The position numbers and the translations under genes are program-made. Positions 1 to 46,656 of a stretch of 64,000 nucleotides of DNA are shown in pieces (position 1 is the stretch's first letter; each line of letters starts with the position of its first letter). The DNA comes from Cenarchaeum sp. Its GTDB lineage: Archaea; Thermoproteota; Nitrososphaeria; Nitrososphaerales; Nitrosopumilaceae. The notes beneath the pieces are model-generated. The model saw only the letters and a program-made list of their open reading frames with translations. It ran no database searches and was not told the DNA's origin. Where the stretch lies: NCBI GenBank assembly GCA_965212015.1, contig OZ243037.1, positions 1,120,001 through 1,184,000 of the forward strand, in the 5' to 3' direction.

Positions 1-721
1 TCCTCAATACTTTGGGATCATGATTTTTTGAAAAATGTAGATAATCATTTATATCAGATTTCCCAACACCAATAGGTTTAAGATCTTTTATTGCATCCTT
101 TACTGTTTTATGTTTTTGTTTTTTTAAATGTAGAAATTTTTCTAAAGAAGATATAATTTGAGGAGTTATAAATTGTTTTTGTATGGATATGGCAATAATT
201 CTATGTCTATTTTGCGGTACATTATAATCTGCAGCATTAACTATATTAAATAATGTTTTATAATCTGTTTTTTCCAATTTTTTTATATAATAATTAAAGA
301 ATTTTTGTCCAGGGCCTTTTGCCATCCAAGAAACATTTTCAAATACCACAGCTGTAGGATGCATTTCTTCAACAATAGAAGCAAATTTTTTCACATATTT
401 GCTTCTTGGATCAGATTTCGTATCCACCATAGTAGTATCAGATAATTTGCTAAACGATTGGCAGGGAGGACAGCCAACCATACAAAATTTCTCATTTTTA
501 GATATTCTGCCAGCTTCCATAATTTTTTTACCATTAATTTTCATTATATCTGCCTGAATTGGATTTATTTTCAAATTGTTTTTATATACCTCACATCTGA
601 GAGGATTGATTTCTATCGCAGCAGCGATTTCAAAACCTGCTTTTTTGAATCCCAATGACGCACACCCCATTCCTGAAAAAACGTCAATCATTTTGTATGG
701 TTTTTTCATAATATCTTTCAT
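1..721 (-). CDS. dcm: C5 DNA cytosine methyltransferase, runs off the left edge of the window
   Basis: Manual translation (absent from the ORF track): MIDVFSGMG (motif I), GCPPCQSFS (catalytic PC), FENV, VPQNRHR. Confidence 0.93.
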   Translation of the reverse strand, partial: MKDIMKKPYKMIDVFSGMGCASLGFKKAGFEIAAAIEINPLRCEVYKNNLKINPIQADIMKINGKKIMEAGRISKNEKFCMVGCPPCQSFSKLSDTTMVDTKSDPRSKYVKKFASIVEEMHPTAVVFENVSWMAKGPGQKFFNYYIKKLEKTDYKTLFNIVNAADYNVPQNRHRIIAISIQKQFITPQIISSLEKFLHLKKQKHKTVKDAIKDLKPIGVGKSDINDYLHFSKNHDPKVLR

Positions 722-854
722 TCGTGGGGTTTAATTAATTATTCATTAATGGATCACAACTCAAAAACAACAAAATCTCCTTTTCTAGTATCACCCACGC
801 TCAAAACCACCTAAAATCATCCTCTATATAGACGATGGCAGACCCGATCCATAA

Positions 855-909
855 CCAGTTAGATCCCGTGCCTGTAGATCTAAATATCCCTCTTGAACCT
901 AACCTGTTA
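855..909 (+). repeat. 55-bp element, inverted copy of 12781-12835
   Basis: Reverse complement matches 12781-12835 at 51/55 positions. Confidence 0.9.
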
Positions 910-1083
910 TCCATGTGAATTCCTTTTAAACATTTCACTCATTTACTCTGGTAAATAGGAGGGGGTTTTCACTGCGGCTGTAAAGACAGGATGTTTTTCT
1001 GGATTTGTGCAAAATCATCAGAGCAGCAAATTACAGAGATGTTGATCTGAGGCACACGGCCCCTAACGGCACTGCCAATCCCA

Positions 1084-1245
1084 TCATGTATAGTATCGCT
1101 TTTTTTCAGGCAGTTTGTCCTCGATTCTCTTGAGAATTTCTATAATCTCCTTTTTGTCTTTTCCGTTAAGAATCATACTACAGGTAAATAGAGCCATGCC
1201 TATTAAGGCCGAAGATGCCGCCGGCCAGACAATATCAAGTATCAC
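1084..1245 (-). CDS. small membrane protein (53 aa)
   Basis: GTG-started ORF MILDIVWPAASSALIGMALFTCSMILNGKDKKEIIEILKRIEDKLPEKKRYYT: one hydrophobic helix plus an amphipathic tail. Confidence 0.5.
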   Translation of the reverse strand: MILDIVWPAASSALIGMALFTCSMILNGKDKKEIIEILKRIEDKLPEKKRYYT

Positions 1246-1257
1246 GCATAACCATAT

Positions 1258-2355
1258 GTGCCTAGAAAACGAAGTTCAGATGGTACCCGGCATGGGATAA
1301 AAAATGCAAACAAACAGATTACCCCTCGAAAAAATTTGGGTGTGAAGAGGATAAAATCGCAATCCCAGATATACGTCGGGATAGATCTGCACAAGGAATT
1401 CATGCAGGTCTCTGCAATGGATGCAGGCGGTAACGAGCTGCTAAACGAAAAGGTTCCGGCCATCAAGGAATATATCCGCAAATTCTTTCGCATCTTTCCG
1501 AAAAATGCAAAATGTGTCATGGAATCCTCATCTGTATGGTATGGAATATTCAGGTACATGACAGATGAATTGAAAATGGATGTCATATTATCTAATCTGT
1601 ACCAGACAAAGGCAATCGCCGCATCAAAGAAAAAGACGGACAAGATTGATGCGCGCATACTGGCGGATCTTTACAGGGGTGGATACATAGCCACGTGTCA
1701 TGTGCCGAACAAATACATTGTGGATCTTCGGCAGCTGGTGCGTCATCGCGCAAAGTTGGTAAAGACAAGATCCAAGATGAAAAACTATATCCACGGAATA
1801 CTGCTGCAAAATGCCATAAAGATACCTGGAACACCATTCTCATCCTATTTCATAGGGCAGCTGATGACCCTTGACGACTATAGAATAGATGAATATGTCA
1901 GAACCATACAGTTTTTCAATGATCGCATAATACAGGCGGATTTGAGAATAAAAGAGGCAGTACAAAAAAACCGGAATGCCCAGCTTTTGGAATCCATTAC
2001 GGGTGTGGGCAAGTTTAGCGCACTGGTAATTGCAGCAGAGATAGACGACATTAACCTGTTTTATGACTCGCACAAGCTTGCAGCATTTGCAGGTCTGGTC
2101 CCGTCCGTGAGAAACTCTGCAAATACAATACGTCACGGAAGGATAATCAGACGCGGCAGCCCCATGATGAGATGGGTACTGGCAGAGGCCATTCACTCCC
2201 ATGTTAGATTTGCAAAGGATTCTCCCATCTCAAAGTTTTATCTGTGCCTTGCAAAAAAGAAAAGTGCCTCCAAGGCCAAGATGGCAGCTGCTGCAAAGCT
2301 GTTGCGCATGATCTACTGGATGATGAAAAAAGGCATTACTTTTCAAGAGCTGTAA
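1258..2355 (+). mobile_element. IS110-family transposase (true start possibly GTG near 1342)
   Basis: RuvC-like DEDD residues in YVGID, VMES and KTDKID; C-terminal ITGVG and FAGLVPSVRNS motifs. Confidence 0.93.
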
Positions 2356-2575: not shown

Positions 2576-2583
2576 GGTCTAAT

Positions 2584-3280
2584 ATCTCCGAAGAGATACA
2601 GGATGCAAAAAACATCGATGAGATAAAACATTTAGTCCCGGACAGCAACGGGGGAGAGCTGTACATAGATGGCACGCACATATCCATAGAGCGGCCGTCC
2701 GATCCTGCCGCAAGTGAAGTCTACTATATCGGCAGGAAAAAAAAGCACACGCTAAACATTACCATAGTGGCCAATCGCGACAAGCTGATTATTGCGACAG
2801 GAAAACCGATGCCAGGATCTATGCCGGATCTTGATATGTTCCGCGACAACGAGATTGATCTGGAATCGTTGAGCAAGAGCATGAATGATGAGAACGTGGC
2901 AAAAAAGGACAAAGTTACGGTATACGTGGACAAGGGATACCAGGCCATCGAGGGAGATCTGCCCGGCGCCAACGTCCAAAAGCCCACCAAAAAACCGAAA
3001 AATGCCGAGCTAGACGGCGCACAAAAAAATGAAAACAAAAGGATCAGCAACATTAGAATAAAAGTAGAGCACGCCATCTGCCGGCTAAAGCAGTATAAAA
3101 TACTGGCAAAACTGTATGTCGGCACCGACGAGGACCTGCGTAGGGATTTACTAATCGTGACGGGTCTTGCAAACTTTGATCTGCTGTGGGATGCGAAACG
3201 GGAACGCCTCAAGCACGGTTTTTGATCATACAATACGGGGCGCCTGAAGCGCTGTATTTCTGCGCATGGTTTTGTGAAAC
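2584..3280 (+). pseudogene. 5'-truncated IS5-family (DDE_Tnp_4-like) element
   Basis: In-frame ELYIDGTH...YVDKGYQ...RIKVEHAI, homologous to 14983-16107; the 3' non-coding end also matches 14925-14982. Confidence 0.88.
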
Positions 3281-3360
3281 TGTGTGATCTATACGGATCA
3301 GGCATAATATACAGCACCATATTCACAATCATTTAAATTCTACGTATATGTACTACTTAT

Positions 3361-5343
3361 ATGACAAAATCATCTTACACCATGAGAATAAATCGAACCA
3401 CGGTAGACAAATTAGGAATTAAAATGTATGACAGACCTTCTGCTGTTTTGGCGGAAATAATAGCAAATTCGTATGATGCTGATGCAGAAAATGTATTAGT
3501 CAAATTACCTATGGGTAAATTGCTTGTGACAAAGACAAATGGCAACATACAAAATCAAGAATATGAAATGCAAGTTATTGACGATGGAATTGGTATGGAA
3601 CCCAATGTGATTGATAGTTTTTATCTTGTAGTTGGTTCTGACCGAAGAAAAGATTCTAGAAGAGGAAATTTAACCCCGAAAAACCGTAAGGTTATGGGTC
3701 GTAAAGGAATTGGTAAATTAGCTCCATTTGGAATATGCAAAGAAATTGAAGTAGAAACATCAGGAGGTGAAAAAACTGCCAAGGGCTATAAAATCGCTCA
3801 TTTCATTCTAAAATATGATGATATCAACAAGGAAACTAATGAGAATTACAAACCTGATAAAGGACTGCATGATGGAAAATATGCGAAGCATTCTGGAACT
3901 AAAATAACATTAAGAAGTTTTTATCGTAGGAAAACCCCTGATGCAATAACTTTTGGAAGGCAAATGGCACGTAGATTTGGTTTAGAAATGCCTAATTTTC
4001 ATGTAAAACTAATTGATCCTTATGAAGTAAAATGTTTCAAACTTAATCCACTCAATGTGGAATATGAAGATGAAACAAAAATTAGTTTAGACACCAAACC
4101 TATAATATTAGAAGACGGAAAAGAACTTCCGATCAAAGGATGGATCGCTTATGCAAAAACACCATATAAAAATCCAGATATTGCCGGTGTACGAATTTAT
4201 GCACGTGGAAAAATTGTGTCTTCAACTAGGGATTTTAACATGGATGCAGGATTTAGTGGGGAACACAACATTAGATCTTATTTGGTGGGTCAAATATTTG
4301 CGGATTGGTTAGATGATGATGAAGATTATATACGGAGTGATCGACAAGATATTTTGTGGGATGTAGATTTAGTTCGTGCATTTCAAAACTGGGGAAAAGA
4401 TCGAATCAAAGAATTAGGAAAAATATCTCTCAAACCTATGAGAGCGAAAACATGGAAATTATTCATGGAAAATTCAAATATTGAAAAAGATGCCAAAGAA
4501 AAATTCTCTGAAAAAATATTACAAGATACGGCAATTGGATTAGGAAAAACTATTGGTCAAATAGCAAATCGTGATGATTTAACAGATGAAGATTATATTA
4601 ATAGCTTAAAACAATTAATATTTACTGTAACGCCTCATAAAATGCTTGTTGATAGTTTACATGAAATAGAAAATTTAGAAGATCAAACTGATCCATTGAT
4701 ATATATTGCAAAAATTTTTGAAACTGCAAGGATTGCAGAAATTGCATCAATGGGTCAAGTAGCATTTGAACGAATACAAGTACTTAAAAAATTACAAACT
4801 ATGATAAGGGAATATCAAACCAACGAAAAACAACTTCAGGATTTGATTGAAAAATCCCCCTGGATAATTGATCCACAATGGACTACATTGTCTTCAAATA
4901 AAAGTTTCCACAATATGAGAAAAGCATTTGAAAGTTGGTATAAAAAAACATATGATGAAGAAATTGTAACTACTGCATTGTCTGGCGATGAATCAAAAAG
5001 ACCAGATTTTGTAATGCTTAATATTACATCTAAAAATATCGAAATAATAGAAATTAAAATTCCCATGCATAAATTACAAGATGATGAATTTAAACGAATA
5101 ATAATTTATTATGATAGAATGAATGAATTTTTAACTAAACATGAAGAGTTTAAAGTAGAATTTTCAAATGTACGAATTACATTAATTTGTGATGAATTAT
5201 GTTTAACTAATACTTCAAAACATGCATATGATGATTTGGATAATAAAGGAAATTTAATTAAAAAAAATTGGGAGAGAATATTAAAGGATTCAGAGAAATC
5301 ACATGAAGATTTCTTAAATATACAAAATTCTCAACAATATTAG
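3361..5343 (+). CDS. GHKL (MORC/MutL-like) ATPase fused to a C-terminal PD-(D/E)xK nuclease
   Basis: EIIANSYDA, DDGIGM, GRKGIGK and GTKI motifs; C-terminal EKQLQ..PWII and RPDF...IIEIK; AT-rich. Confidence 0.85.
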   Translation: MTKSSYTMRINRTTVDKLGIKMYDRPSAVLAEIIANSYDADAENVLVKLPMGKLLVTKTNGNIQNQEYEMQVIDDGIGMEPNVIDSFYLVVGSDRRKDSRRGNLTPKNRKVMGRKGIGKLAPFGICKEIEVETSGGEKTAKGYKIAHFILKYDDINKETNENYKPDKGLHDGKYAKHSGTKITLRSFYRRKTPDAITFGRQMARRFGLEMPNFHVKLIDPYEVKCFKLNPLNVEYEDETKISLDTKPIILEDGKELPIKGWIAYAKTPYKNPDIAGVRIYARGKIVSSTRDFNMDAGFSGEHNIRSYLVGQIFADWLDDDEDYIRSDRQDILWDVDLVRAFQNWGKDRIKELGKISLKPMRAKTWKLFMENSNIEKDAKEKFSEKILQDTAIGLGKTIGQIANRDDLTDEDYINSLKQLIFTVTPHKMLVDSLHEIENLEDQTDPLIYIAKIFETARIAEIASMGQVAFERIQVLKKLQTMIREYQTNEKQLQDLIEKSPWIIDPQWTTLSSNKSFHNMRKAFESWYKKTYDEEIVTTALSGDESKRPDFVMLNITSKNIEIIEIKIPMHKLQDDEFKRIIIYYDRMNEFLTKHEEFKVEFSNVRITLICDELCLTNTSKHAYDDLDNKGNLIKKNWERILKDSEKSHEDFLNIQNSQQY

Positions 5344-6334: not shown

Positions 6335-7387
6335 TTATCCCAGTAAATTTTTCATGTAATTTCTTACATCACTATATTTTTTATTCACCAAGCTGTAGTC
6401 TATGATTTTTTCTAATCCAAGGAGTTTGTTTATGATGATCAATTTAAAATCATCAGGATTAGCTTTTTCATGTTGATTTCCTCTAGGAGTTCCTTCTCCA
6501 ATATCCGAACAATAAGCATTGATTATATCCATGGAATGCGTGACAATGATGATCTGTTTACCTAATTTATTTACTGCATAGTTGAATAAATCTACAAGAA
6601 TCTCTATGCTGGTACTATGTTGGTACAATTCTGGTTCCTCTATTATTACGGTGCTGTTTTTTGGAGAAAATATCACTGCTGCGATGATTATCACTGCGTT
6701 TTGAATTCCATTACCTTGAAAATGTAGGTTTATGGCTTTAGTTGCATTGCCATCACTTCTGCGTGTGGATAGTGATGTGTTATAAGCCACTACAGGAGTT
6801 TTGAATAATTTTATTTGAGAATCAATTTTACGTAACCAGCATTCAAATAATTGTATGTCATTATCACGCATTGTAGATTTTTCAAGAAGAAATTGAATTA
6901 TATTTCTTCCATCTGGATATAGAGCTTGTATTTGTTTGGTAAAATAATTATCTGCTCTATCAGTTTGATCATTATTACGACCTGTAGGATTTTGATATTT
7001 TATAGTTTTTCTATATGATCCGATATATAAAATATTGTTTAAATTATTAATTAATGCTTCATTAGATATGGGCTTATCAATTGATATTTTTTTAGTGTCG
7101 CCAATAACATTGAGAGTAAACTCACATTTATCATTTTTTACCGTGATGTAAAAATTAGAAGATATATTATATGCCATTTCATTAAAACCGACTAGTGAAT
7201 AATAGTCAGATTTCCAATTAATGAGCTTTTTTGGTTCAATTATAGAGATTTTGGATAAATTTAATGCTTTAAAGATTGTACTTTTGCCGGAATTATTCGG
7301 GCCTACAATGACATTTAGCTTGTTAAAATATACGGAATATTCTTTATTAAAACATCCAAAATTATTTATTTTTATAAAATCAAGCAT
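6335..7387 (-). CDS. ABC/AAA_15-type ATPase (OLD/AbiEii-like) with no nuclease domain
   Basis: Walker A GPNNSGKS, degenerate signature QGNG, Walker B IIEEPE, H-loop VTHS. Confidence 0.85.
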   Translation of the reverse strand: MLDFIKINNFGCFNKEYSVYFNKLNVIVGPNNSGKSTIFKALNLSKISIIEPKKLINWKSDYYSLVGFNEMAYNISSNFYITVKNDKCEFTLNVIGDTKKISIDKPISNEALINNLNNILYIGSYRKTIKYQNPTGRNNDQTDRADNYFTKQIQALYPDGRNIIQFLLEKSTMRDNDIQLFECWLRKIDSQIKLFKTPVVAYNTSLSTRRSDGNATKAINLHFQGNGIQNAVIIIAAVIFSPKNSTVIIEEPELYQHSTSIEILVDLFNYAVNKLGKQIIIVTHSMDIINAYCSDIGEGTPRGNQHEKANPDDFKLIIINKLLGLEKIIDYSLVNKKYSDVRNYMKNLLG

Positions 7388-7580
7388 GAAAATTATAGAT
7401 ATTTCCGAAATAAATATGTAATCGATTACCCGTCTTCAGGTCTGAAAACCCCAAAACAGCCTTTTCTAGTAAAATCCACGCCCAGACAGCCCCTCAGAAT
7501 TACCCCATCTCACGCCCAAAATCACACCATTTTACGCCCAAACACACCCAATATCATTCCACAACTAACGTTAGGCCTCT

Positions 7581-7596
7581 AAAAAAAATAAAAAAA
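7581..7596 (-). terminator. oligo-T terminator of S-layer gene 1
   Basis: TTTTTTTATTTTTTTT just 3' of the stop; identical at 35333-35348. Confidence 0.7.
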
Positions 7597-7618
7597 GGGG
7601 AAATGTGTTGTTTCTAGT

Positions 7619-35370: not shown

Positions 35371-38300
35371 CTATACTACGTTGATGTCTATTACGGCTTT
35401 GGGTGACAGTGCAGTCGGGTTGGATACTGATTCCCAGGCAAACATTGTTACTGTGTATGCTCCAGGTGTGTCAGGTATCCATGACTGTGCTGCGTTTTGT
35501 GAACCGCCAGCTGGCATTACGCCTCCGGACCAATCAAGTTTGATGATCACTCCGTTTGCGTCTTCGATCTGTACCAAATATGCATAGTCCTGCTCCTTGT
35601 CCTGTCCGCTGATCAAGTCCGCCTCAAAGTGCACCCGTGTATCCACGGATATGCTAGCTAGGGGGTTTCCTTGGCCGTCGACTACTCGCGGATCGTTGAT
35701 TACCAGGCGCTCAAGAGGCGGTACTATTGTACCGATGAACGTTGTTCCCGTAATCTGTACCTCATCCGAAGGTGAGTAAGTCCTGTCAGGCAGGTCTGGG
35801 AGAGTATTGTCGTCATATTCAGCCTTTACCGTGTCGCCTTCAGCTACTCTGAGCCTGTGGCCAGATGAGTCCTCGGTTAGCGAGAATGTCACCGTGCCCT
35901 CAAATATACCAGTTGCCTGGTTGGTCTCAGTTACAGTGAGGTCAATGCCTCCGCTGTCACTATCAGAGCGAACGTCAATGTCGAAGTTGTCTACCGATTC
36001 TGGATTCCAGTTCATGTCCGGATCAATCACACGTACAGTGCCTGTTGATGATGCAGCATAGCTAGCTTCTAGCCAGCTTACCTCACCTAGGTTCCATCTG
36101 ATCAATGAAGAGCCGATTACGGTCTCATCCTCTGAGAACTCAAAGGACACCGTTACACCGTCGTCTTCAGTGGCAGACAAGAGACCATTAGTCGGGCCCT
36201 GACCGTCAGACTCGTAGTTTGCCGGTATGGCAAATCCAACGTCCTGTCCTAGGTCGTTGCCCGTAGTCGTGTCGCCGTCAGCATCGTGCAAGAAACCGGT
36301 GAGTATTACCTCTCCGGTAAATATGCCCGTGTCGGGACCCGTCTCAGTCAGCCTGTATTGGTCAAGATCGCCCTCACCAGTGTTTACCCTTACCACGTCC
36401 TCTCTCGTTTCTCCGATTTCATCAATCAGATCGCTGTCAAAGTTGTGGTCAGGTGCAAGTATGGTGATATACACCTTGTCAGTCCAGGTATACACCTTTT
36501 GATCGAGCTCTATCGTGGCACCAAAGTTGGATGTGAGTACTGTAAGATTTACATCTTCGTCCTCGTCACCAACATAGTTTGCGCCAGATGGACCCCAATC
36601 GGTGTATTCTAGCTCGATTGCCTCGCCTCTGTCCAGATTGCTTTCGCTTAGTGCTTCAGGGATTTCAATGACAACCTGGAAGATTCCAGTGCTGTCACCT
36701 GTCTCTCTAAATGCACTTGGTTCTGGATCGAATGCTGTGTCTTGACCACCTAGTATACCCATGGTCAGTGCGGCATCGTCTGAATCCCATTCAATGAGAT
36801 CCAGTGTATAGGTCTCGCGCTCGTCATTTTCAAGGTCAAGATCTGGCTCGATTAGAGTCAGAATCATGTCCCCTCCAATAATGTACGCGGACTTGTCGGA
36901 TTGTAGTATGCCGTTTCTGAGGTCGAATGTAGCTGAATCAGTCACTGTGTTTTCTTCACCTGATGCGTCTGTTGGATCCGTGTATATCACTGTGAGAATG
37001 TCGCCTTGCAGGATACAATAGTTGCGCTCTGTATCACCGTTGAATCGGACAGTAGAGTTGCCTCTTGAACCGTCTGCTACATTCTCAAAGTTGTCAGTGT
37101 TCGGACAGTTGTTGCTAGACGGGCCGTCAGTATACCTGACAGGCAGATCCAGCTCGAATATTCCGGCATCCGGTGCAATCTCTGCAATCGGGCCGAATTC
37201 GTACTGGTTGTCTTCAGGTTCTGTGCCTACTGTGAGGTGGGTACCGCTACTTGCTTCTCCACCTGCAGTTGCCAGGATTACAGTCTCAGAGCCTCTAGAC
37301 ACGGAAACTTCTATCGGTCCTCGTGCTCCGTCTGCAATCATGTCCTCACCACTGCCAGATATGTCATAGTCCGGATCGTTGACCCTTACGTGTATGGTCA
37401 GATCACCGTTTTGGATTGTCTCGTCTGGCTGTATGCCGTCACTGCCTATACTGGCTACATGAACCGGGAATATGGCTCTTCCACTAGGGCCAGAACCACT
37501 CTCGGGATCAAAGTCGGCAACTCCGTCAGTCTCACCAACAGTACCGAATGGTACCGGGTAGACAGTTTTGTCAAAGCTGACCGAACCAGTGTTTGCGCGG
37601 ATTCCAGCAGAATCACCTACTTCGATGATTTCGCCGGACAGATCTCTATAGTCGACATAGTTTACCTCCAAGTCTACACCAGTAGTGGATACATATCCAG
37701 GAATTTCTTCAGTTCCAGATGTGTCTGCTGGACAGTACACTGTAGGTATCTGGAATGTTCCTGTGAATATTCCTGAAGCCTTTGTGGTCTCGGCCATGGT
37801 AAATCCAGTGGCTCCAAGTCCATCGTCTGCAGGATTATCTCCGAAGCATCCATTACGCTCAGCACTTGTCCATAGTTCGTCGTCGAAGGTGATATCAAGC
37901 AGTCGTCCAAGATTGTCAGCTGGATTATCATCGGTTCCAACCACATCAACATTAAAGGATGTGGTACCGCTAGTATTACGTACCACAGTAAAGATATCCC
38001 TTACCTCCACATCTGTGTTCAGATCCGGATCCTCAAGGGTAACTGTTACCGTGTCGGCAATCTTGTAGTTGTTTGAGTCAAACGATACTACGCCTGAATG
38101 AGTCGGTGCTTCTACCTGGTCTGCGACCTGTGTAGCCACGCCATCCTCGCCAAAGTCAAGATAGTTGATTCTCACTGAATCCTCGTCTGTAAGATCATTG
38201 TGGATGATCATTTCTGCATCATCGCTGATCACGTCCAGATTCGGAATGTAAGAATTAGGATCGTTGACATTGAGCTGGTTTAGCATCAGGAACTCTAGGG

Positions 38301-40374
38301 AGCCTATAAAGACTCCGGTATTGTCCCCGCTCTCTTCTAGCTCCAGCCTATAGATGGCATTGTTGACCCTGTCACCAGGAGCAACACCGTCGCCTATTTG
38401 GCCATAGCTAAAGAAGTCGATTGCTATAGGATACGTGGCTGCAGGAATGTCCTCACCAAAGTCAACAATCTCTACAGTTAGATCTTCACCCAGGAATCCT
38501 CTTTCTACAATAGTCAAGTCGGTTTCATCTAGTAGAACCAAGCCCTGAAGTCCTTCAGATGTGGCAATATCAACCTCAGTGCCGTTATTAACACTAAATG
38601 TTAGAGTGCCAATATCACTGTCAACATCTCCAAATGATCGTAGATCATAGTTCAGGAAGTGATGTACCGTATCGTTGGATGCTCCATCAAAGAAGTCCCT
38701 CAATACCGTGCCATCACCTTTGTCGAATGTGAGTGTTAGAGGAGCGGTTACAGTGATAGAGCTATTAACTACGATCAACATCCTGTCACTAAAGGCTTGA
38801 ACTTCAGAGCTTCCAATATTAGCAGCATTACCGCCTTCAATTGTAACTCCAGTCGTACCGGCCAGTGTCACTGGGCTTCCAATTCTAACGCTTGGAATCA
38901 GTGGGACGTTTGAATCAAATAGATCCAGGTCTTCGTCGACCAGGCTGTTTCTGTTGATGTCGCCGTCTGTGAGTGTGATTGATATCTGTTCACCAGAGTT
39001 CCATGCATCACCTACTCCGTCTTTGCCAAATTCTATGCTACCAAAGTAATTGGTAACAAAGATTGACTTTTCTGAGAGGTTGTAATCGATGCTTGCACTG
39101 ACTCCTCTAGGCGCATCAGCATGAACAACAATGTTGGCTATATCGCCTTCATCGGTGTTTTTGAATATGCCAGAGTTTGACTGAGTTTCAGTTATGGTCA
39201 CTGGAGCAGCACCTGCATCAATGTCTGTTATGGCTGTACCATCATCTAGTGTGACTGTCGCCGTTGCAAGTTCAGCTATACCATTTTCTACATCACTGCT
39301 CAGTACCTGTTCTGTATTGTCTTGTAGCTGAAGTAGATCACCAAATTCATGGTTCTCCTTGTTCGGATACAGTATCAAAGCTCCATTGTCGTCAAAGTTC
39401 AGGGTACTAAGAGGTATGTCTGGATGATCACCTGCACCTCCTTGTGATTCGCCATTCTCATCAAATACTTGGTATCTGGTTTCAGTGGCGCCAAAGGGTG
39501 TCGAAAATGTCCAAGAGTCTTCGTCAGTTGGGTCGATGTTTAGCTGTAGATCAGTTATGGTAAAATGAACTGATGCTCCAGGTGGATAGTCCTCCCTGTC
39601 TAGTGACAGGCCGGCATATCCATCGGCATCATCCAAGTATACCAAATCAATCTGTTGTTCTCCGCCACCCTTGTTGTACTTTACCTCGATGGTTCCATCT
39701 ACGGCAAAGTTAAACACTTGAATGGCAGGAAATTCGTTGGGAGCTAGACCGACTTGTCCAAGAGTTACTCCACCATTTCCTTCGGCGGTAGGTGTTTTTT
39801 GTTCTCTGAGAACATTTTGGTTGTCATTTCTGTCATCAGGTAATGATCCAGTTGGAGTACCAGTAGCTTCGTTACCACATGTTGCATCTTCAAAGTATAC
39901 ACCATCGGTATCAGAATAACTGGTAAGACTAACAGCAGCATCAGTGGCATCATCATCAGTGGCAGCATCAGCAGATCCTTCAGTACAGAATGTACCAAAG
40001 TCCAATGATTCACCATTAATACCAATAAGATCAGCAGCTTCTGCCATACTTGCTTCTGCAAAGTACGCATACCAGTTGCCGTCAGTTGCCTGTACCATCT
40101 GTATGTCTTGTCCATTGACCGTCACGTCTGGTTCGGATTCTAGCGAGTCCACATCCTTCAAGTCAGGATCGTTGACTACAATCTCGACGACCATAGGGCC
40201 GGCAATGCTGTTGTCAAACAGTGAGTTTTCCGCAGAAACGAACAGGTTTTCGGTAGCTGCATGTGCGACCGGCGTGCCAGGAATGGCAAACGTCAGTCCA
40301 CCTGCAACCATTATCGTCATTATTATTAGACTAGTTGTTTTTCGTATTTTGTCGTTATCTATTTTGTTTTTCAT
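35371..40374 (-). CDS. slaA: S-layer protein, SlaA-like, copy 2 (1667 aa)
   Basis: Paralogue of 7619-12631 with the same motifs; TTTTATA about 30 nt upstream. Confidence 0.9.
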   Translation of the reverse strand: MKNKIDNDKIRKTTSLIIMTIMVAGGLTFAIPGTPVAHAATENLFVSAENSLFDNSIAGPMVVEIVVNDPDLKDVDSLESEPDVTVNGQDIQMVQATDGNWYAYFAEASMAEAADLIGINGESLDFGTFCTEGSADAATDDDATDAAVSLTSYSDTDGVYFEDATCGNEATGTPTGSLPDDRNDNQNVLREQKTPTAEGNGGVTLGQVGLAPNEFPAIQVFNFAVDGTIEVKYNKGGGEQQIDLVYLDDADGYAGLSLDREDYPPGASVHFTITDLQLNIDPTDEDSWTFSTPFGATETRYQVFDENGESQGGAGDHPDIPLSTLNFDDNGALILYPNKENHEFGDLLQLQDNTEQVLSSDVENGIAELATATVTLDDGTAITDIDAGAAPVTITETQSNSGIFKNTDEGDIANIVVHADAPRGVSASIDYNLSEKSIFVTNYFGSIEFGKDGVGDAWNSGEQISITLTDGDINRNSLVDEDLDLFDSNVPLIPSVRIGSPVTLAGTTGVTIEGGNAANIGSSEVQAFSDRMLIVVNSSITVTAPLTLTFDKGDGTVLRDFFDGASNDTVHHFLNYDLRSFGDVDSDIGTLTFSVNNGTEVDIATSEGLQGLVLLDETDLTIVERGFLGEDLTVEIVDFGEDIPAATYPIAIDFFSYGQIGDGVAPGDRVNNAIYRLELEESGDNTGVFIGSLEFLMLNQLNVNDPNSYIPNLDVISDDAEMIIHNDLTDEDSVRINYLDFGEDGVATQVADQVEAPTHSGVVSFDSNNYKIADTVTVTLEDPDLNTDVEVRDIFTVVRNTSGTTSFNVDVVGTDDNPADNLGRLLDITFDDELWTSAERNGCFGDNPADDGLGATGFTMAETTKASGIFTGTFQIPTVYCPADTSGTEEIPGYVSTTGVDLEVNYVDYRDLSGEIIEVGDSAGIRANTGSVSFDKTVYPVPFGTVGETDGVADFDPESGSGPSGRAIFPVHVASIGSDGIQPDETIQNGDLTIHVRVNDPDYDISGSGEDMIADGARGPIEVSVSRGSETVILATAGGEASSGTHLTVGTEPEDNQYEFGPIAEIAPDAGIFELDLPVRYTDGPSSNNCPNTDNFENVADGSRGNSTVRFNGDTERNYCILQGDILTVIYTDPTDASGEENTVTDSATFDLRNGILQSDKSAYIIGGDMILTLIEPDLDLENDERETYTLDLIEWDSDDAALTMGILGGQDTAFDPEPSAFRETGDSTGIFQVVIEIPEALSESNLDRGEAIELEYTDWGPSGANYVGDEDEDVNLTVLTSNFGATIELDQKVYTWTDKVYITILAPDHNFDSDLIDEIGETREDVVRVNTGEGDLDQYRLTETGPDTGIFTGEVILTGFLHDADGDTTTGNDLGQDVGFAIPANYESDGQGPTNGLLSATEDDGVTVSFEFSEDETVIGSSLIRWNLGEVSWLEASYAASSTGTVRVIDPDMNWNPESVDNFDIDVRSDSDSGGIDLTVTETNQATGIFEGTVTFSLTEDSSGHRLRVAEGDTVKAEYDDNTLPDLPDRTYSPSDEVQITGTTFIGTIVPPLERLVINDPRVVDGQGNPLASISVDTRVHFEADLISGQDKEQDYAYLVQIEDANGVIIKLDWSGGVMPAGGSQNAAQSWIPDTPGAYTVTMFAWESVSNPTALSPKAVIDINVV

Positions 40375-41068
40375 GTTCTTACGATTTTTTAGAAAAAAAT
40401 ACTATAAAAGGGTAATGAACGAGTCGTTCATTGCAAAACGAGGGAATTCCCATGAAACGTGCCTAACCACACAGTTTGCCCATGGCAGATCAGATCGCCC
40501 CAGTCAGGGCCGAATTTACTGCAAAATGACAGATCGGCCGGCCGCATCACCCGGTACCCAAGCCGCCGCTTTTGCCCCCAAGCCGGAATGGCGCACATTT
40601 GCACCACACTTGTACAGGTCCGTGCCAGAACGGGGTTTATGATGTCAACGGATCACCGTACACATCATGCGATCCAAAGTTCACGCGATCAGACGGTTTA
40701 GATAAAATTCCCAGCCGGCCGATCAGGCTTTATGAACTTTCACGCACCACATCGGTTTATTCTGGAATCATCCACACGTGAAACGGATCTGCAAGATCAG
40801 GATGTGTTTTGACGTCATGCCGGCAGTCCGGATCAACTGCACACAATCCTGGAAATCTTTTGTATTTTTGGCCCGCATGACACACAGATTCCCAACGTAT
40901 GGTGTTCTGCCCCACACGTACTAGACTCACGACAACTTTACGTACACGGTCAATGCGCATCAAATCCAAAAAGCATATTTATAAAATCACGTGCAGGACT
41001 GCAACGTCTCGTACGCCATAAAGCCCGCACCAGAGCCATTCTCGTCTTGCGGCAGAAAAATTTGACGC

Positions 41069-41626
41069 ATGTATTACCGTGACAAAACCGGAATAATCCT
41101 CGACAATGCCTTGGCATACGGCATGCATTTTATGCATTGTTTGGCCTTTGTAAATCGGAATTATACACATGCAGCCAAAGATCCAACCCTAGACTTTGAT
41201 CATGCCGCTACAACCCGCAAATCCGCAAGCATCCCGCCCCAAAATACAAGGCTCATCCTGTCTGACGCTGCCAAGGAACGACTTCGAATATACCGCGCAA
41301 AATACTATAAGGCAAACAAGGAAACGATCTTGGCTCAAAACAGAAAATATCAAGCAAAATTAAAGACCGGTAGAAAACCCAAGGGAAAACCCGGCAGACC
41401 CAAAAGAAAGCCGGGTAGAAAACCAGGTAGAAAGTCCCAAACAAAGACGAGGAAAACCGTGGGAAATCCAGTGCAAGATCCAAGGGACCTACCAAGGCAC
41501 AGCTCAGGAAATACCATCGGGAATATGCGAGGAAATACTATAAAGCAAACAGGGCAAAGATTCTCTCCAAAAATAGAAAACGAAAACGTTAAAGCTAAAG
41601 GTAAAACCAAAAATAAGACACTGTAG
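41069..41626 (+). CDS. basic low-complexity protein, probably frameshifted, related to the QRPEV proteins
   Basis: AKERLRIYRAKYYKANKETILAQNRK and KPGR repeats; a second YYKANRAKIL motif lies in another frame. Confidence 0.5.
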   Translation: MYYRDKTGIILDNALAYGMHFMHCLAFVNRNYTHAAKDPTLDFDHAATTRKSASIPPQNTRLILSDAAKERLRIYRAKYYKANKETILAQNRKYQAKLKTGRKPKGKPGRPKRKPGRKPGRKSQTKTRKTVGNPVQDPRDLPRHSSGNTIGNMRGNTIKQTGQRFSPKIENENVKAKGKTKNKTL

Positions 41627-41735
41627 GAAATGATATTGTCGTGAGGTATTATGAGGTCAAATCAATACTCATTATGTACAAAACTTTTGTGCACAAAGAA
41701 CAACCCATAATAATTACCAAACAAGACATCACACA

Positions 41736-42545
41736 TTGGCAAAATCTATAGAATCGGCCAAGAAAAGGCTGGAGAGGCTAAGGCGCCAGAGGGAGTACTA
41801 TCGGGAAAAGATACTGGCCAAAAACAGGAAAAGCCCGGCAAAATCGGGGGCAAAAAATACCCGTAAAAAATCCAAGACAAAATCCGGCGTATCGGCCAAG
41901 GAAAGGCTCAGAAAATACCAGAAGGAATACTATTGGGAAAATCGGGAAAAAATCCAGGCCCGACGACAAAGATATCGGAAACAACGGAAGGAATACACCC
42001 AGAGGCCGGAGGTAAAGAAAAAATTCCAGAAATACCGGCTAGAATATTATCAGAGGCCGGAGGTGAGGGAGCGGCGAAAGGAATACATGAGAAAATACAA
42101 CCGGCGGCCGGAGGCAAGGGAGCGGCAGAAAGAATACGACCAGAGGCCGGAGGTGAGGAAGCATAAAAGAGAATACCAACAGAGGCCGGAGGTGAGGAAG
42201 CATAAAAGAGAATACCAACAGAGGCCGGAAATAAAGAGAAAACAGAAGGAATACACCCAGAGGCCGGAGGTAAGGGAGCGGCGAAAGGAATACCGTCAGA
42301 GGCCGGAGGTAAAGAAAAAATTCCAGAAATACCGGCTAGAATATTATCAGAGGCCGGAGGTAAAGGAGCGGCAAAAGGAATACAGCCAGAGGCCGGAAAT
42401 AAAGAGAAAACAGAAGGAATACACCCAGAGGCCGGAGGTGAGGGCGCGTAAAAGAAGATACGATCAGAGGTCGAAGGTAAAGGTACGTAAAAGACATTTA
42501 GCAAAGACCAGTGGGAAATCCAAGACAAAGGCCGATAGGAAATAA
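41736..42545 (+). CDS. basic repeat protein (about 12 KEYxQRPEV units)
   Basis: 269-aa ORF, paralogue of 25946-27334. Confidence 0.75.
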   Translation: MAKSIESAKKRLERLRRQREYYREKILAKNRKSPAKSGAKNTRKKSKTKSGVSAKERLRKYQKEYYWENREKIQARRQRYRKQRKEYTQRPEVKKKFQKYRLEYYQRPEVRERRKEYMRKYNRRPEARERQKEYDQRPEVRKHKREYQQRPEVRKHKREYQQRPEIKRKQKEYTQRPEVRERRKEYRQRPEVKKKFQKYRLEYYQRPEVKERQKEYSQRPEIKRKQKEYTQRPEVRARKRRYDQRSKVKVRKRHLAKTSGKSKTKADRK

Positions 42546-42592
42546 TACCAGTCGGATGGCCCTTATGATTGGGACATGCCCCCTTTGATCAT

Positions 42593-42708
42593 GTGACCTG
42601 TACGGGCTTACGGGCCTTGGTGACCTGTACGGGCTTACGGGCCTTGGTGACCTGTACGGGCTTACGGGCCTTGGTGACCTGTACGGGCTTACGGGCCTTG
42701 GTGACCTG
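42593..42708. repeat. 27-bp tandem repeat, about 4.3 copies
   Basis: Exact copies of GTGACCTGTACGGGCTTACGGGCCTTG. Confidence 0.95.
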
Positions 42709-42920
42709 GGAGTTGTGTATGTGATTTGTATCCTGTCCGGGCCGGGACTCCGGCCCGGGATGGTTCTGGGCAAGAGGGCCGGCCCTGCCGGCCCGATGAT
42801 GTGATGGGATAGGGCTCCCGTCAGGGAGCCTTGGGCGATGACCTTGAAGTCCGAATGAGTTCGTCGTTGTGGGGATTGTGAGGTAACTGCGAGCTGGAAA
42901 TCCGCGCGCGGGGCTTGAAA
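42701..42920. repeat. ~220-bp hairpin-rich module, duplicated at 43358-43578
   Basis: Near-identical direct copy with three GC-rich hairpins. Confidence 0.92.
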
Positions 42921-42923
42921 AAT

Positions 42924-43120
42924 GGCACTTTTGCAGTCAAAAAAATGCAGTCAAAAGCATTTTTGCAGTCAATTTTTGGCATTTTTGCAGTCAGTAAAAA
43001 GATGCCAAAAGCATTTTTGCAGTCAAAAAAATGCAGTCAAAAGCATTTTTGCAGTCAGTAAAAAGATGCCAAAAGCATTTTTGCAGTCAAAAAAATGCAG
43101 TCAAAAGCGCTTTTGCGGTC
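42924..43120. repeat. degenerate TTTTGCAGTCAAAA repeat tract
   Basis: Repeated GCAGTCA motifs between A and T runs. Confidence 0.85.
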
Positions 43121-43214
43121 GAAATGGATCCGGATGACAGGACGGCTCAAAAGCCAGAGCAGATAACACAGAGTCGGCTGGCCATCAAGATTGAGAGACT
43201 CCTCTTGGTGATGT

Positions 43215-43366
43215 GGGACCTGTACGGGCTTACGGGCCTTGGTGACCTGTACTGGCCTGTGGGGGCCTTGGTGACCTGTACTGGCCTGTGGGGGCCTTGG
43301 TGACCTGTACTGGCCTGTGGGGGCCTTGGTGACCTGTACTGGCCTGTGGGGGCCTTGGTGACCTGT
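43215..43366. repeat. 29-bp tandem repeat (4 copies) preceded by one 27-bp unit
   Basis: GTGACCTGTACTGGCCTGTGGGGGCCTTG. Confidence 0.95.
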
Positions 43367-44061
43367 GGGGTTGTGTATGTGATTTGTATCCTGTCCGGGC
43401 CGGGACTCCGGCCCGGGATGGTTCTGGGCAAGAGGGCCGGCTCTGCCGGCCCGATGATGTGATGGGATAGGGCTCCCGTCAGGGAGCCTTGGGCGATGAC
43501 CTTGAAGTCCGAATGAGTTCGTCGTTGTGGGGATTGTGAGGTAACTGCGAGCTGGAAATCCGCGCGCGGGGCTTGAAAAACGACCCTTTTGTGGTCGGTA
43601 ATCGACCTCTTTGTGATCGAAACAGGCTGGGATGACGGAACGGCTCAGGAGTCGGAGTAGATAACAGAGTGGGCTGGCCTTCAAGATTGAGAGACTCTCC
43701 TTGGTCATGTGGCCTGTGGCCCTTGGTGGCTTGTGGCCGGCCTTGGTGACTTGTGGGAGTCTAGACTTTGTCCCAGATGGTTTTGGGAGAGGGCCGGCTC
43801 TGCCGGCCTTGGTGTATGGTTCGGCCGGAGACTCTGGCCTATATGATTCCGGGCAAGAGGGCCGAACCTGTGACCCGGGATGGTCCTTGGCTAGTCGGGC
43901 TGGCCTACAGCCCGACGGTGTGGTGGAACGGGGCTCCCGTCAGGGAGCCCCGGGGAAAGACGTTGAGATTACTGAATCGTGGTTCGTTGTTGGGGATTTA
44001 TGAGGTAATGCGAACTCGTCTGTCGTAAATGCGCATACGTGAGGGATATCAGTCATATTTC

Positions 44062-44222
44062 TTTGTGCACATTGTGCACAACCATTGTGCTCTTTGTGCA
44101 CAAAAAAATGTGCATATTGTGCACATTGTGCACAACCATTGTGCATTTTGTGCACAAAAAAAGTGCTTTTTGTGCTCTTTGTGCACATTGTGCATTTTGT
44201 GCACACAGAAAGTGCACTTGGT
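44062..44222. repeat. cluster of TGTGCACA palindromes
   Basis: About 8 TGTGCACA copies plus variants. Confidence 0.9.
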
Positions 44223-44227
44223 GTACC

Positions 44228-44460
44228 CAGTGTACGCAAAAAGGTGTATTGCGTACACTCAGTGTACCGTCACGTAGCACTCAGTGTACGCAAAAAGGTG
44301 TATTGCGTACACTCAGTGTACCGTCACGTAGCACTCAGTGTACGCAAAAAGGTGTATTGCGTACACTCAGTGTACCGTCACGTAGCACTCAGTGTACGCA
44401 AAAAGGTGTATTGCGTACACTCAGTGTACCGTCACGTAGCACTCAGTGTACGCAAAAAGG
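44228..44460. repeat. 54-bp tandem repeat (4.3 copies) with an internal 11-bp inverted repeat
   Basis: Units start at 44228, 44282, 44336, 44390 and 44444; AGTGTACGCAA-N9-TTGCGTACACT. Confidence 0.95.
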
Positions 44461-44578
44461 GTACACTTGGTACATTTGGTGTACCCATACGTAGCACTTG
44501 GTGCACTCAGTGTACGCAAAATGGGTGCACTTGGTGCACTTGGTGTACCCATACGTAGCACTTGGTGCACTTTGTGTT

Positions 44579-44704
44579 ACCTCACGTAGCTCTTTGAGCT
44601 ATCCCCACGTAGCTCTTTATGCTCTTTATGCTACCTCACGTAGCTCTTTGAGCTATCCCCACGTAGCTCTTTATGCTCTTTATGCTACCTCACGTAGCTC
44701 TTTG
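44579..44704. repeat. second 54-bp tandem repeat (2.3 copies)
   Basis: ACCTCACGTAGCTCTTTG... at 44579, 44633 and 44687. Confidence 0.9.
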
Positions 44705-44946
44705 TGCTTTTTTACCCAAAGTTGGACTGTGGCATTTGGGCATGACAATCAAAGACCCAAATTAGAAGCAGATTCCATGCGATCAAACCAACGTCTGCCT
44801 GATCTCAAAGAACGACTCAATAATTCCCAAAGCCCCATATTGGCAAGATCCAAGATATTGACCAAGGAAAGACTCGGAAAATACCGCTAGAGGCTCATGT
44901 GGGAATTGTGCTTTTTCTGCAATTTGCGCTAGCAGACCCTCTGACA

Positions 44947-46359
44947 TTAGGATTCCACCTTTTGTGTGATTGGCCGGCGCACAAGGAATCTGCCGTCGGA
45001 GAGCTCCTTGTCCATATCCCACCCCCGGGCCGAATGCTCCAGCAGGCTCTGCTCATCCTTTACAATCTTGCTCTCAAAGGGGTTACGGCCGACAGGCTCT
45101 TCCTGCTTTATCCTGTCTGGGGTCTGCTCTGATTTTGGGTCCTGAGCAAGCACGGGCGGGTCCACCCCGTACATTGTCGCCTGCTGGCGCCACATCTCGA
45201 GCAGCATCTCCTTTTTGTCCATGCCCGCACCAGAGGAGTCGGTGGCCAGAAACATCTGGCTTTGTGTGTATGCGCGCCTCATATCCTCCATCATCTGCTC
45301 TGTCAGCATTCCCTTGTTGGTCGTATATCGCGCCTCCATGTCGCCCTTGTGGCCCATAAAGAACTGCCTGTATGCGTGCGTCATGCACCCGTGGCTTTCG
45401 GCCATGAGCATCTGCGTGTCAAAGTACGCCCTCAGGGCGTACGGCCGGATCTTCATCACGCTCCAGATAATCGGCCGTATGCTAGACGATATGTTTGTCG
45501 TGGTCAGATACAGGTTTGAGTCGTCCTTGCGCCTTCCCTTTATCCTGTATCCATGTCCAACCGCAATCAGTGCAGAGTCCGGCTTCAATATCTCCCCGCG
45601 CGCTATGCGCGCTTGAAGATATCCCAGGACATACTTGCAACCCTGCTCGCTCAGAAACGTCATGTACTTGTTGCGCGTCTTGCTCAGATTCGCCCGTACT
45701 ATTATTCTGGCAGGCATTTTTTCAAATCTAACCCTATCGCCGTCGATTACAAGCTCTGGCATGTCACCAAGGCACAGACCGTCGTCCCTCTCTACGGTGC
45801 CCATAACCTGCGGACGTATTCCGGAGAACGCCATCAGGCTGATTATGACCCTGTCACGCGGGGCTCCGGCATCAAGAATTTGCCGCAGCTGATCCTGATC
45901 CGGAACCTTTTCGTCCTGGATTCTTACCGGCACGTCCTCGTTTCTGATCTTTATCTTGCGCTTTATCTCTATATGGTTGTACTCTAGCCAAGACTTTATC
46001 GCCTTTATCATGCCGCCGATGTATCCCGGCGCATATTTCTGTCCCTCCATCCACGAGACGTGATCAAGCAGTATGTTTTCTACTTGCATTGGATCCTCCC
46101 GTCCAGTCTTTACAAGCTGTTCGGGTGATACTTTGATCCTGTCGCAGAAAAGATTCAGTCGCCGCAACTTTACGCCTGCGCTTAACACGCTTGAGCGGCG
46201 AATGTTATCATACCATCTGCGTATGTCATCATTATTCAATAATAGTTTAGGGGGTTCGGTCGCCATTCTGTTCCAGCTTCGGATCTTTGATTTGGATGTA
46301 ATCGTATTTGTACTTGGCGCATTTTGATCAACGTTGATACCTCTATGTTGTTGCATCAT
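44947..46359 (-). CDS. tyrosine recombinase/integrase
   Basis: SGIRP (R), SKT (K), YALR, FMGH and ARY catalytic residues; adjacent to the tRNA 3' end. Confidence 0.92.
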   Translation of the reverse strand: MMQQHRGINVDQNAPSTNTITSKSKIRSWNRMATEPPKLLLNNDDIRRWYDNIRRSSVLSAGVKLRRLNLFCDRIKVSPEQLVKTGREDPMQVENILLDHVSWMEGQKYAPGYIGGMIKAIKSWLEYNHIEIKRKIKIRNEDVPVRIQDEKVPDQDQLRQILDAGAPRDRVIISLMAFSGIRPQVMGTVERDDGLCLGDMPELVIDGDRVRFEKMPARIIVRANLSKTRNKYMTFLSEQGCKYVLGYLQARIARGEILKPDSALIAVGHGYRIKGRRKDDSNLYLTTTNISSSIRPIIWSVMKIRPYALRAYFDTQMLMAESHGCMTHAYRQFFMGHKGDMEARYTTNKGMLTEQMMEDMRRAYTQSQMFLATDSSGAGMDKKEMLLEMWRQQATMYGVDPPVLAQDPKSEQTPDRIKQEEPVGRNPFESKIVKDEQSLLEHSARGWDMDKELSDGRFLVRRPITQKVES

Positions 46360-46579
46360 CGTTGATACCTCAACTTTGACATTCTTTCATTAGGAATTAT
46401 ATATGGGATGTTTTTATATTGTGAAATAATACGGCGCCCTTCCAATTCTGCCCTTGATTTGAATAATACAATTTTTAAAATCATTTTTTGGAAATGAAAT
46501 TTGTTTACAATTCTAAAATCCAGAATATTTTTTTTGCTCGATTCTGAAAACATTATATCATATAGTTGTGTTAAAAAAA

Positions 46580-46656
46580 TGGCGGGTCTAAGGGGATTCG
46601 AACCCCTGACAGCCGGATTAAGAGTCCGGTGCTCTACCTGGCTGAGCCATAGACCC
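46580..46656 (-). tRNA. tRNA-Lys(CTT)
   Basis: Full cloverleaf GGGTCTA...CCGGA-CTCTTAA-TCCGG...TAGACCCG-CCA. Confidence 0.96.

Follow-up and report, generated by a model that had tools for sequence, protein, structure and literature searches.

In lysogenic (serotype) conversion, a temperate phage element carries a gene that alters the surface of the cell, and the accretion of integrative and conjugative elements (ICE) is known to involve cis-mobilizable elements (CIME). To our knowledge, ammonia-oxidising archaea have no cell wall other than their surface layer (S-layer). The closest described relatives of the locus treated here are the cryptic integrated elements (CIE) of thaumarchaea, which lie at tRNA genes, form arrays at one site, and carry restriction-modification cargo (PMC6563490). 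Here, we analyzed a stretch of 64,000 nucleotides from a Cenarchaeum sp. genome (G000:C1:1120001-1184000, hereafter the window; a single-contig genome of 1.76 Mb, 99.7% complete, with 0.04% contamination), which holds part of an island beside a tRNA-Lys(CTT) gene that carries two full-length S-layer genes together with defence-type cargo. We favor as the probable reading that cryptic integrated elements accreted at tRNA-Lys to form the island, and that an S-layer gene was captured by one lineage of these elements.

The island shares with CIE a tyrosine recombinase at a tRNA 3' end, direct repeats, a defence cargo, and the lack of viral, conjugative, or casposon hallmarks, and the size of its complete unit is near the CIE median of 17 kb (PMC6563490). 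Unlike CIE, it has an NmSLP-type major S-layer gene as cargo, present in two related units that hold the only full-length copies of the genome, and no replication gene was found in it. The original prediction had held that no such system was described, which goes too far, as the elements at tRNA genes of thaumarchaea are in print, and one figure legend (Fig. 6 of PMC6563490) names an 'SLP' cargo. We found no paper, among open-access texts, that places an NmSLP-type gene in an element bounded by attachment (att) sites. The island also resembles the tycheposons, or tRNA islands, of Prochlorococcus, in which cargo elements that integrate and excise at a few tRNA genes reshape larger flexible islands with niche and defence genes (Hackl et al., 10.1101/2020.12.28.424599); these are bacterial and have a defining gene set of their own, no such module was found in the island, and membership is not claimed. 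Divergent S-layer alleles that are exchanged by homologous recombination, at a surface that viruses target, are a further likeness, known from the S-layer cluster of Haloquadratum walsbyi (PMC4033161) and the cassettes of Clostridioides difficile (PMC4535781). In those replacement islands, the variants swap at one locus and the borders carry neither integrase nor att site, whereas here tandem copies lie in att-bounded units. Compared with lysogenic conversion, the island likewise presents an integrated element with a cell-surface gene, but it has no virion genes, and the product of its gene is the predicted main protein of the lattice and not an enzyme that modifies the surface.

Units, attachment sites and recombinase of the island

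The 3' end of the tRNA-Lys gene recurs twice in the window, with 19/20 and 17/17 matching positions, exactly as had been read from the sequence at the outset (cf. Table 1). When the 17-mer was searched with up to 2 mismatches, exactly three copies were found in the whole genome, all of them on the plus strand, in the window, and within 30 kb of the tRNA. Since only about 0.26 matches are expected by chance in 3.5 Mb (both strands; own arithmetic), we consider these repeats real. They divide the island into unit E1 (25564-46579, 21.0 kb), bounded on both sides by att copies, the att-flanked unit E2 (16478-25543, 9.1 kb), and unit E3, which starts at 16460 and extends to the left with no recognisable left end. 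The earlier picture of two segments stands for E1 and E3, to which E2, an integrase-less unit that had gone undescribed, has to be added; by layout alone, E2 is comparable to a CIME, being att-flanked and lacking an integrase. Composition and duplicated sequences give the whole island an extent of about 77 kb, from window position 46579 to about 30 kb left of the window (genome ~1,089,000-1,091,000). The two arms of a perfect 10-nt inverted repeat (CACTAAAAAC / GTTTTTAGTG; window 16450-16495) enclose the att copy at 16461 as their loop, and no such repeat surrounds the other two copies. A minus-strand match with 5 mismatches at window position -29686 was rejected as being at chance level.

Self-BLAST and a repeat-family search of the window revealed that E1 and E3 share a block (35249-44780 and 7528-14600, respectively), thus confirming the collinear segments and their order as predicted. 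The matching pairs are 7558-10659 with 35310-38447 (88%; terminator and 3' part of the S-layer gene), 10868-12643 with 38629-40388 (79%; 5' part of the S-layer gene), 12918-13336 with 40667-41107 (78%; a block of about 430 bp), and 14214-14600 with 42736-44780 (72-83% in pieces; a repeat zone that is collapsed in E3). The block has the same orientation in both units; about 1.8 kb separate its near end from an att copy, and its far end is located about 60 nt beyond the S-layer stop codon, the cargo being different past that point. The 3' end of the S-layer gene and the T-rich terminator, 300 nt in all, are 100% identical between E1 and E3, so the claim of an identical terminator was correct. 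The motif TGTGCACA occurs 11 times, as compared with 1.3 expected occurrences, and is confined to the repeat zones (14422-14460, 41688, and 44064-44205). The genes named after their QRPEV repeats also proved to be genuine open frames, as proposed; the unit is 13 residues long, QRPEV(K/R)E(R/K)QKEY, the proteins match no Pfam family, and paralogues adjoin several other integrases of the genome (at ~326 kb, 647 kb, and 882 kb). From the order that had been suggested for both units, the repeat zone, the 430-bp block, the S-layer gene, and the terminator are retained, and the truncated integrase of E3 is not. The frame put forward as that integrase (16170-16418, minus strand, 82 codons) was checked with profile models as had been advised: it gave no Pfam or PHROG match, no longer homologue was retrieved, and its hhalign probability against the integrase family was only 0.07.

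The frame that begins at 46359, next to the end of the tRNA at 46580 and on the same strand, encodes the 470-residue integrase of E1. It has no match in Pfam (including PF00589), PHROG, or PDB sequences, and a profile of its family gave nothing meaningful against PDB sequences either. Then, an AlphaFold2 model (alignment of 24 sequences; mean predicted local distance difference test score, pLDDT, of 75.7) was compared with known structures using Foldseek, and the top matches were tyrosine recombinases only, i.e. XerA (E 7.4e-7), IntI, Cre, and phage integrases, with 41 matches at E<=1e-3. The residues R182, K227, Y307-x-x-R310, H337, and Y345 are invariant in the family and are read as the catalytic set, assigned by pattern rather than superposition. 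On the grounds of its modeled fold and the tRNA context of its family, the protein is a predicted tyrosine recombinase. Its relatives number 1212 in the databases, almost all from Nitrososphaeria, and a few are named site-specific integrase by NCBI; the closest of them (P0006, on a contig of 1.79 Mb) is 81% identical. A family widespread in Nitrososphaeria and Bathyarchaeia is thus missed by the standard Pfam and PHROG models. Out of 259 stretches from other genomes that encode a relative, 78 distinct loci were kept. A tRNA gene on the same strand lies within 700 nt upstream of the integrase in 41 of them, the layout seen in the window, and another 9 have an opposite-strand tRNA just downstream, which brings the tRNA-adjacent loci to 50/78; these represent at least 13 anticodons, with Lys(CTT) occurring 5 times. 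The distribution is patchy: 6 of 18 genomes in the family have the integrase, whereas 4 further species in the genus all lack it. When integrase loci were searched downstream for a direct copy of the tRNA 3' end (at least 14 nt), 1/37 (L056) had one, with none in either control, the 10-kb flanks probably being too short for this purpose.

To see the tRNA-Lys locus in other genomes, we compared five relatives (G008, G013, G006, G009, and G001), all of them other species or genera, bearing in mind that the tRNA-Lys flank is also rearranged in the genome under study. None of the five has an S-layer gene, the integrase, or an OLD gene on the integration side of tRNA-Lys. G008 has the S-layer gene first, then R508, R336, R250, and tRNA-Lys, with conserved genes following only 22 nt beyond and continuing up to tRNA-Val(tac); G013 has the same layout with a gap of 1.2 kb, and in G006 and G009 those neighbor genes are found 2.6-4.9 kb past tRNA-Lys. 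G001, a member of the genus itself, keeps collinearity with the window between 56626 and the tRNA and continues with unrelated genes. Empty tRNA-Lys sites, which had been named as something to look for, are therefore present in relatives, and the S-layer gene is not part of a syntenic core at this position, which had been named as a refuting outcome. Because these five genomes lack the S-layer gene, integrase, and OLD there, the island is an addition at the tRNA-Lys 3' end. The genes beyond tRNA-Lys in G008, G013, G006, and G009 are orthologues of positions 943,000-947,139 of the present genome, which end at tRNA-Val(tac). As this ancestral neighbor block is now 219 kb away, a large rearrangement has one end at the island, and tRNA-Lys(CTT) is a point of both island growth and chromosome rearrangement in the genus.

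S-layer genes and the origin of the island

The two S-layer proteins match no Pfam family, and a hydrophobic N-terminal segment can be seen in translation. A comparison of the E1 copy with PDB sequences gave chain 8c8k_A with an E value of 0 and 1521 bits in two stretches, the best being residues 515-1666 of the query and 561-1733 of the chain; this chain, NmSLP, is the sole solved relative found. The 'slaA' label used before is replaced accordingly by NmSLP-type, the SlaA sequence itself not having been compared directly. From this homology, a lattice-forming surface protein is predicted. NmSLP of N. maritimus (Nmar_1547, 1734 aa) has a paralogue, Nmar_1201, that is 91% identical to it (PMC11153153; von Kuegelgen et al. 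2024; PDB 8c8k). The island genes are like it in their near-full-length homology, their similar size (1667-1670 vs 1734 aa), and the presence of two paralogues per genome; unlike the N. maritimus pair, for which the available text describes no mobile-element context, they are 82% identical, mosaic, and located inside an island. A separate core S-layer gene, the existence of which was to be checked, was not detected, as the whole-genome search found no full-length NmSLP-type gene other than the two island copies. Their closest relatives, P0125 and P0126, are 80-81% identical and come from contigs of 12-20 kb. A third, truncated copy (3' 1.3 kb; window -14106..-12848) is 93% identical to that of E1 and 91% to that of E3. 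Along E1 and E3, windows of 100 codons range from 51 to 99% amino acid identity, with synonymous divergence (dS) of 0.015-0.98, and the first 100 codons are 98.7% identical in nucleotides. This mosaic pattern of identity points to repeated gene conversion between diverged S-layer alleles.

A second locus of the genome bears on how the gene arrived. At 636-654 kb (L112, 636,001-656,000), two tandem paralogues of the E1 integrase (651-654 kb) accompany a repeat zone, which includes a frame resembling 43055-43708 of E1, and QRPEV-like genes, followed by low-GC cargo that consists of GmrSD, a ResIII helicase, a HATPase_c_3 protein, a PLD-like protein, and a PAPS-reductase-like protein. This element has no S-layer gene, and Rfam reported no tRNA beside it. 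Since it recurs without the S-layer gene, the backbone of integrase, repeats, and QRPEV genes is separable from the S-layer block, which suggests that the latter was taken up by the E1/E3 lineage.

These observations led us to propose that the island was built by site-specific integration events, which repeatedly targeted the terminal 17-20 nt of tRNA-Lys(CTT), with decay and recombination following. E1 would be the complete unit, having its recombinase beside the regenerated tRNA and then the repeat zone, QRPEV gene, S-layer gene, defence cargo, and distal att copy; E3 would be a relative of E1 in which an insertion sequence (IS) element now occupies the integrase region and the distal att copy is gone; and an older remnant, with the truncated S-layer gene and then an OLD-like gene, would be found 13-16 kb beyond the left edge of the window. 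Both E1 and E3 would stem from one element lineage that acquired the NmSLP-type gene just beyond the integrase-repeat-QRPEV backbone, variable defence cassettes would be placed beyond the S-layer terminator, and the S-layer copies would keep exchanging segments by gene conversion. At the least, it is supported that the att-bounded units were made by site-specific integration at tRNA-Lys. The order of the integrations, the capture of the S-layer gene by an element, and mobility at the present day are putative, as would be any benefit drawn from an altered virus receptor combined with defence.

A number of findings weigh against such accretion and capture. With regard to the units themselves, (i) an integrase of E3 could not be demonstrated either by a search for longer homologues or by hhalign, and none was found in E2; (ii) a search of genome positions 1,075,001-1,170,000 with the 20-mer, allowing up to 5 mismatches, returned only the three known plus-strand att copies, so that the leftmost unit is without a distal one; (iii) among frames of at least 100 aa scanned with Pfam, PHROGs, or PADLOC, there were no hallmarks of capsid, conjugation, replication, or casposons; (iv) no relatives of the integrase occur in IMG/VR viral contigs; and (v) none of the 78 integrase loci of other genomes has a QRPEV gene. 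As for the scans under (iii), which bear out the earlier statement that no capsid, conjugation, or Rep genes are recognised, PHROG covered 10 frames, with Pfam and in some cases PADLOC being applied to the rest. With regard to the S-layer gene, (vi) none of its 8 full-length loci in 5 relatives has an integrase within 40 kb, whether P0001-type or an above-cut-off PF00589 match (one PF00589 match below the threshold is 5 kb away from a G001 S-layer cluster); (vii) an S-layer-like match occurs in only 2/78 integrase loci (L086 and L072), being partial in both; (viii) G016 has two S-layer copies, 99.89% identical over 5,521 bp, which are 274 kb apart and have no integrase (L104, 1,205,457-1,210,977, and L105, 1,479,573-1,485,093; the homology comprises the gene, ~230 nt upstream, and 90 nt downstream); (ix) G001 has two clusters of convergent S-layer pairs that were duplicated without integrases; and (x) N. 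maritimus, too, has its paralogous pair. Furthermore, if the S-layer is essential, the location of all full-length copies on the island argues for fixation over free mobility.

Several of these points suit the main rival explanation, namely that the island is a resident flexible surface island, in which host S-layer genes were multiplied by segmental duplication or homologous recombination in a hot spot, an integrase element landed beside them, and the att-like copies are small, older, unrelated integrations. S-layer duplication and dispersal without integrases are common in the family (PMC11153153), and replacement flexible islands for surface structures, including S-layers, are on record (PMC4033161). 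The S-layer genes are strongly mosaic, S-layer-like sequence is scarce in the integrase loci, and the island is rich in dispersed duplicates and IS elements (a segment of 1.4 kb with 91% identity, the S-layer 3' fragment of 1.3 kb with 93%, and two IS copies with 99.86%). In addition, the sole full-length S-layer gene of G008 and of G013 is located about 5 kb from the same tRNA-Lys(CTT), on its other, 5' side (L096, G008 C11:52143-60026; L098, G013 152419-160595), which may be a coincidence or the trace of an old linkage. However, local gene duplication alone does not predict the equal att distance and orientation of both blocks, the shared block includes the repeat zone of the element, a zone found again next to an integrase paralogue at another place in the genome, and relatives have nothing between tRNA-Lys and the conserved neighbor genes. 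On balance, we judge a resident island to be rather unlikely.

According to another explanation, which is compatible with either origin, S-layer variation is programmed: the two genes, expressed together or in alternation, and the silent 3' fragment would serve as conversion cassettes that alter the lattice toward viruses or the host, with the integrase and defence genes as bystanders. This would fit the alternation of 96-99% windows with 51-59% windows between the two genes, the similarity of the truncated third copy to E1 (90%) and not to E3 (54%) in one 100-nt window, and the identity or near-identity of the 5' ends (98.7% in nucleotides over 100 codons) and terminators. Against it, the ratio of nonsynonymous to synonymous change (dN/dS) exceeds 1 in no 100-codon window, its maximum of 0.9 falling in a near-identical window, and neither an invertible promoter nor a recombination signal was noticed, no search aimed at them having been made. 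We hold programmed variation to be doubtful.

Similarly improbable in our estimation is the idea that, in this lineage, the major S-layer gene is a passenger of a family of tRNA-Lys elements with exchangeable antiviral cassettes, so that gain, loss, or recombination would re-tile the surface and change immunity in one step. If true, it would be the archaeal parallel to lysogenic surface conversion, with a non-viral element as the vehicle, acting on a surface that is both a virus receptor and an ammonium-trapping lattice; the S-layer is described as trapping ammonium (PMC11153153), and S-layers have been treated as virus targets (PMC7921747). The original prediction had gone this far in proposing a family of elements that deliver S-layer genes, a claim not upheld by the 2/78 partial matches in integrase loci and the 0/8 S-layer loci linked to an integrase. 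Among the 10 frames scanned with PHROG, there was no match to a structural protein, as a serotype-converting prophage would have. The S-layer genes of relatives occupy non-orthologous places, those clusters of G001 being flanked by orthologues of 727-756 kb and 1551-1554 kb. The link between S-layer gene and integrase looks like an event of one lineage rather than a general system, and it is in this lineage only that the link of S-layer gene and putatively mobile element is seen. Returning to accretion with capture of the gene, all full-length S-layer copies are found in att-bounded DNA beside OLD, AAA_15, and restriction genes, and surface variation and immunity could be co-inherited or exchanged together. 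In L099 (G013 239,796-240,518) and L086, short frames that share homology with the first ~250 residues of the S-layer protein were also noticed, 3-6 kb from tRNA-adjacent family integrases.

That two strain haplotypes of one locus were joined in tandem by the assembler is hardly credible. In its favor, strain variants can differ as much as the two blocks do (78-100% identity), and the genome probably comes from a mixed sample, variant contigs being numerous in all runs. Against it, 9 kb of unique att-bounded DNA lie between the blocks, the cargo of each is its own, there is a third fragment still further to the left, the genome forms a single contig with the completeness and contamination given above, and the E1 cargo is matched without any difference by assembled contigs from run X1. 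The sequencing runs were consulted in the form of assembled (Logan) contigs, and parts of the stretch are present in 5 runs from 3 studies. In a second study, a contig from run X3 (973 nt, 17 differences) bridges the 5' end of the integrase and the tRNA, and other contigs of X3 and X4 contain the start of the E1 S-layer gene with the upstream block. Both of these runs cover the S-layer gene, the integrase, and the flank, and they have near-zero cover at 30501-32501, 33169-33835, and 34503-35169, all in the E1 cargo; no contig joins across, and nothing is drawn from this. The listed contig joints are all within repeat arrays (41532-46321). In run X5, one contig agrees with the tRNA from 46582 on but has dissimilar sequence before it; as it may come from a different species with the same tRNA, it was not used as an empty site.

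Cargo genes, insertion sequences and the left end

The coordinates of the features are collected in Table 1. The cargo is AT-rich (GC 0.29-0.36) and made up of defence-type genes, with a different ATPase-type defence gene 3' of each S-layer copy; Pfam and PADLOC thus agree with the different AT-rich defence genes that had been predicted beyond each copy. The OLD-family gene of E1 is a fusion of ATPase and TOPRIM parts, of which the E3 counterpart has the ATPase part only, and a gene with both parts also lies left of the truncated S-layer copy. The neighbors of the OLD gene gave no PADLOC match to the partners of two-gene systems (GajB, AriB), no targeted search having been made. No helicase or primase was seen among the frames of E1-E3 in the general scans. 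The segment 28769-30069 is duplicated about 36 kb to the left at 91% identity. In E3, the run of restriction and C5 methyltransferase genes is interrupted by IS110 and IS5-type sequences. The large protein of E2 is not an S-layer homologue, and homologues of it occur near family integrases in 5/78 loci.

Table 1. Positions of the features discussed, numbered as in the window
Feature	Position	Strand	Basis or remark
C5 cytosine DNA methyltransferase	2-721	-	runs off window start
IS110-family transposase gene	1258-2355		
Degraded DDE_Tnp_4 IS copy	2581-3286		
HATPase_c_3 protein	3361-5343	+	matches type II restriction enzyme models; PADLOC REase_II 1.1e-33
AAA_15/AAA_21 ATPase (NsnB / AriA / AbiLi-like)	6335-7387	-	directly downstream of E3 S-layer gene
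NmSLP-type S-layer protein, E3 copy	7619-12631	-	1670 aa from the ATG aligning with E1
Conserved block of ~430 bp, E3 copy	12918-13336		
Collapsed repeat zone, E3	14214-14600		
IS element	14804-16189	-	DDE_Tnp_4 transposase 14983-16107
att copy 3, E2/E3 boundary	16461-16477	+	17/17 match
Subtilase S8 + Ig-like surface/secreted protein, E2	17421-22706	-	1761 aa; Pfam
CAP-domain protein, E2	24248-25003	-	Pfam; paralogue at genome 227 kb
att copy 2, E1/E2 boundary	25544-25563	+	19/20 match
Second QRPEV-repeat protein, distal end of E1	25946-27334	-	462 aa
DUF6884 gene + 299-aa gene	28769-30069	-	weak AGOG (N-glycosylase) match of the 299-aa gene
OLD-family ATPase + TOPRIM nuclease, E1 cargo	30498-32528	-	Pfam AAA_15, OLD-like_TOPRIM; PADLOC Old 7.7e-25, AriA 1.1e-24
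T-rich terminator region, E1	35310-35370	-	identical to 7558-7618
NmSLP-type S-layer protein, E1 copy	35371-40374	-	1667 aa
Conserved block of ~430 bp upstream of S-layer gene, E1	40667-41107		not one open frame in E1
QRPEV 13-residue repeat protein	41736-42545	+	269 aa; highly basic; no known family
27-32-nt repeat arrays, E1	42593-43378		
TGTGCACA / 54-nt tandem repeat zone, E1	43892-44780		
Predicted tyrosine recombinase (integrase) of E1	44947-46359	-	470 aa; fold + family context
Proximal att copy	46580-46599		terminal 20 nt of tRNA-Lys 3' end
tRNA-Lys(CTT), intact	46580-46656	-	ARAGORN; Rfam 71.8 bits

On the other side of the tRNA-Lys gene, ARAGORN called a tRNA-Arg(TCG) at 54882-54956, which was not reported by the Rfam tRNA model at its gathering score in a scan of the whole window. 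The IS element said to truncate the E3 integrase does exist and is IS5-type as stated; its description is corrected here to a DDE_Tnp_4 element at the position given in Table 1. A second copy of it, inverted and 99.86% identical, was found 43 kb to the left (genome 1,091,384-1,092,769; window -28617..-27232). The inverted pair, which brackets 42 kb of the island, could mediate an inversion, and an examination of the two IS copies for target-site duplications, as a test of such an inversion, gave no clearly readable duplication. At the left end of the island (L090, genome 1,089,675-1,099,755), there are genes for a ParB-like protein, a DUF7002 protein, a TPR protein, and an HNH nuclease, together with an adenylosuccinate-synthetase-like protein with a kinase-type AAA domain and an M78 peptidase that also has a weak Macro-domain match.

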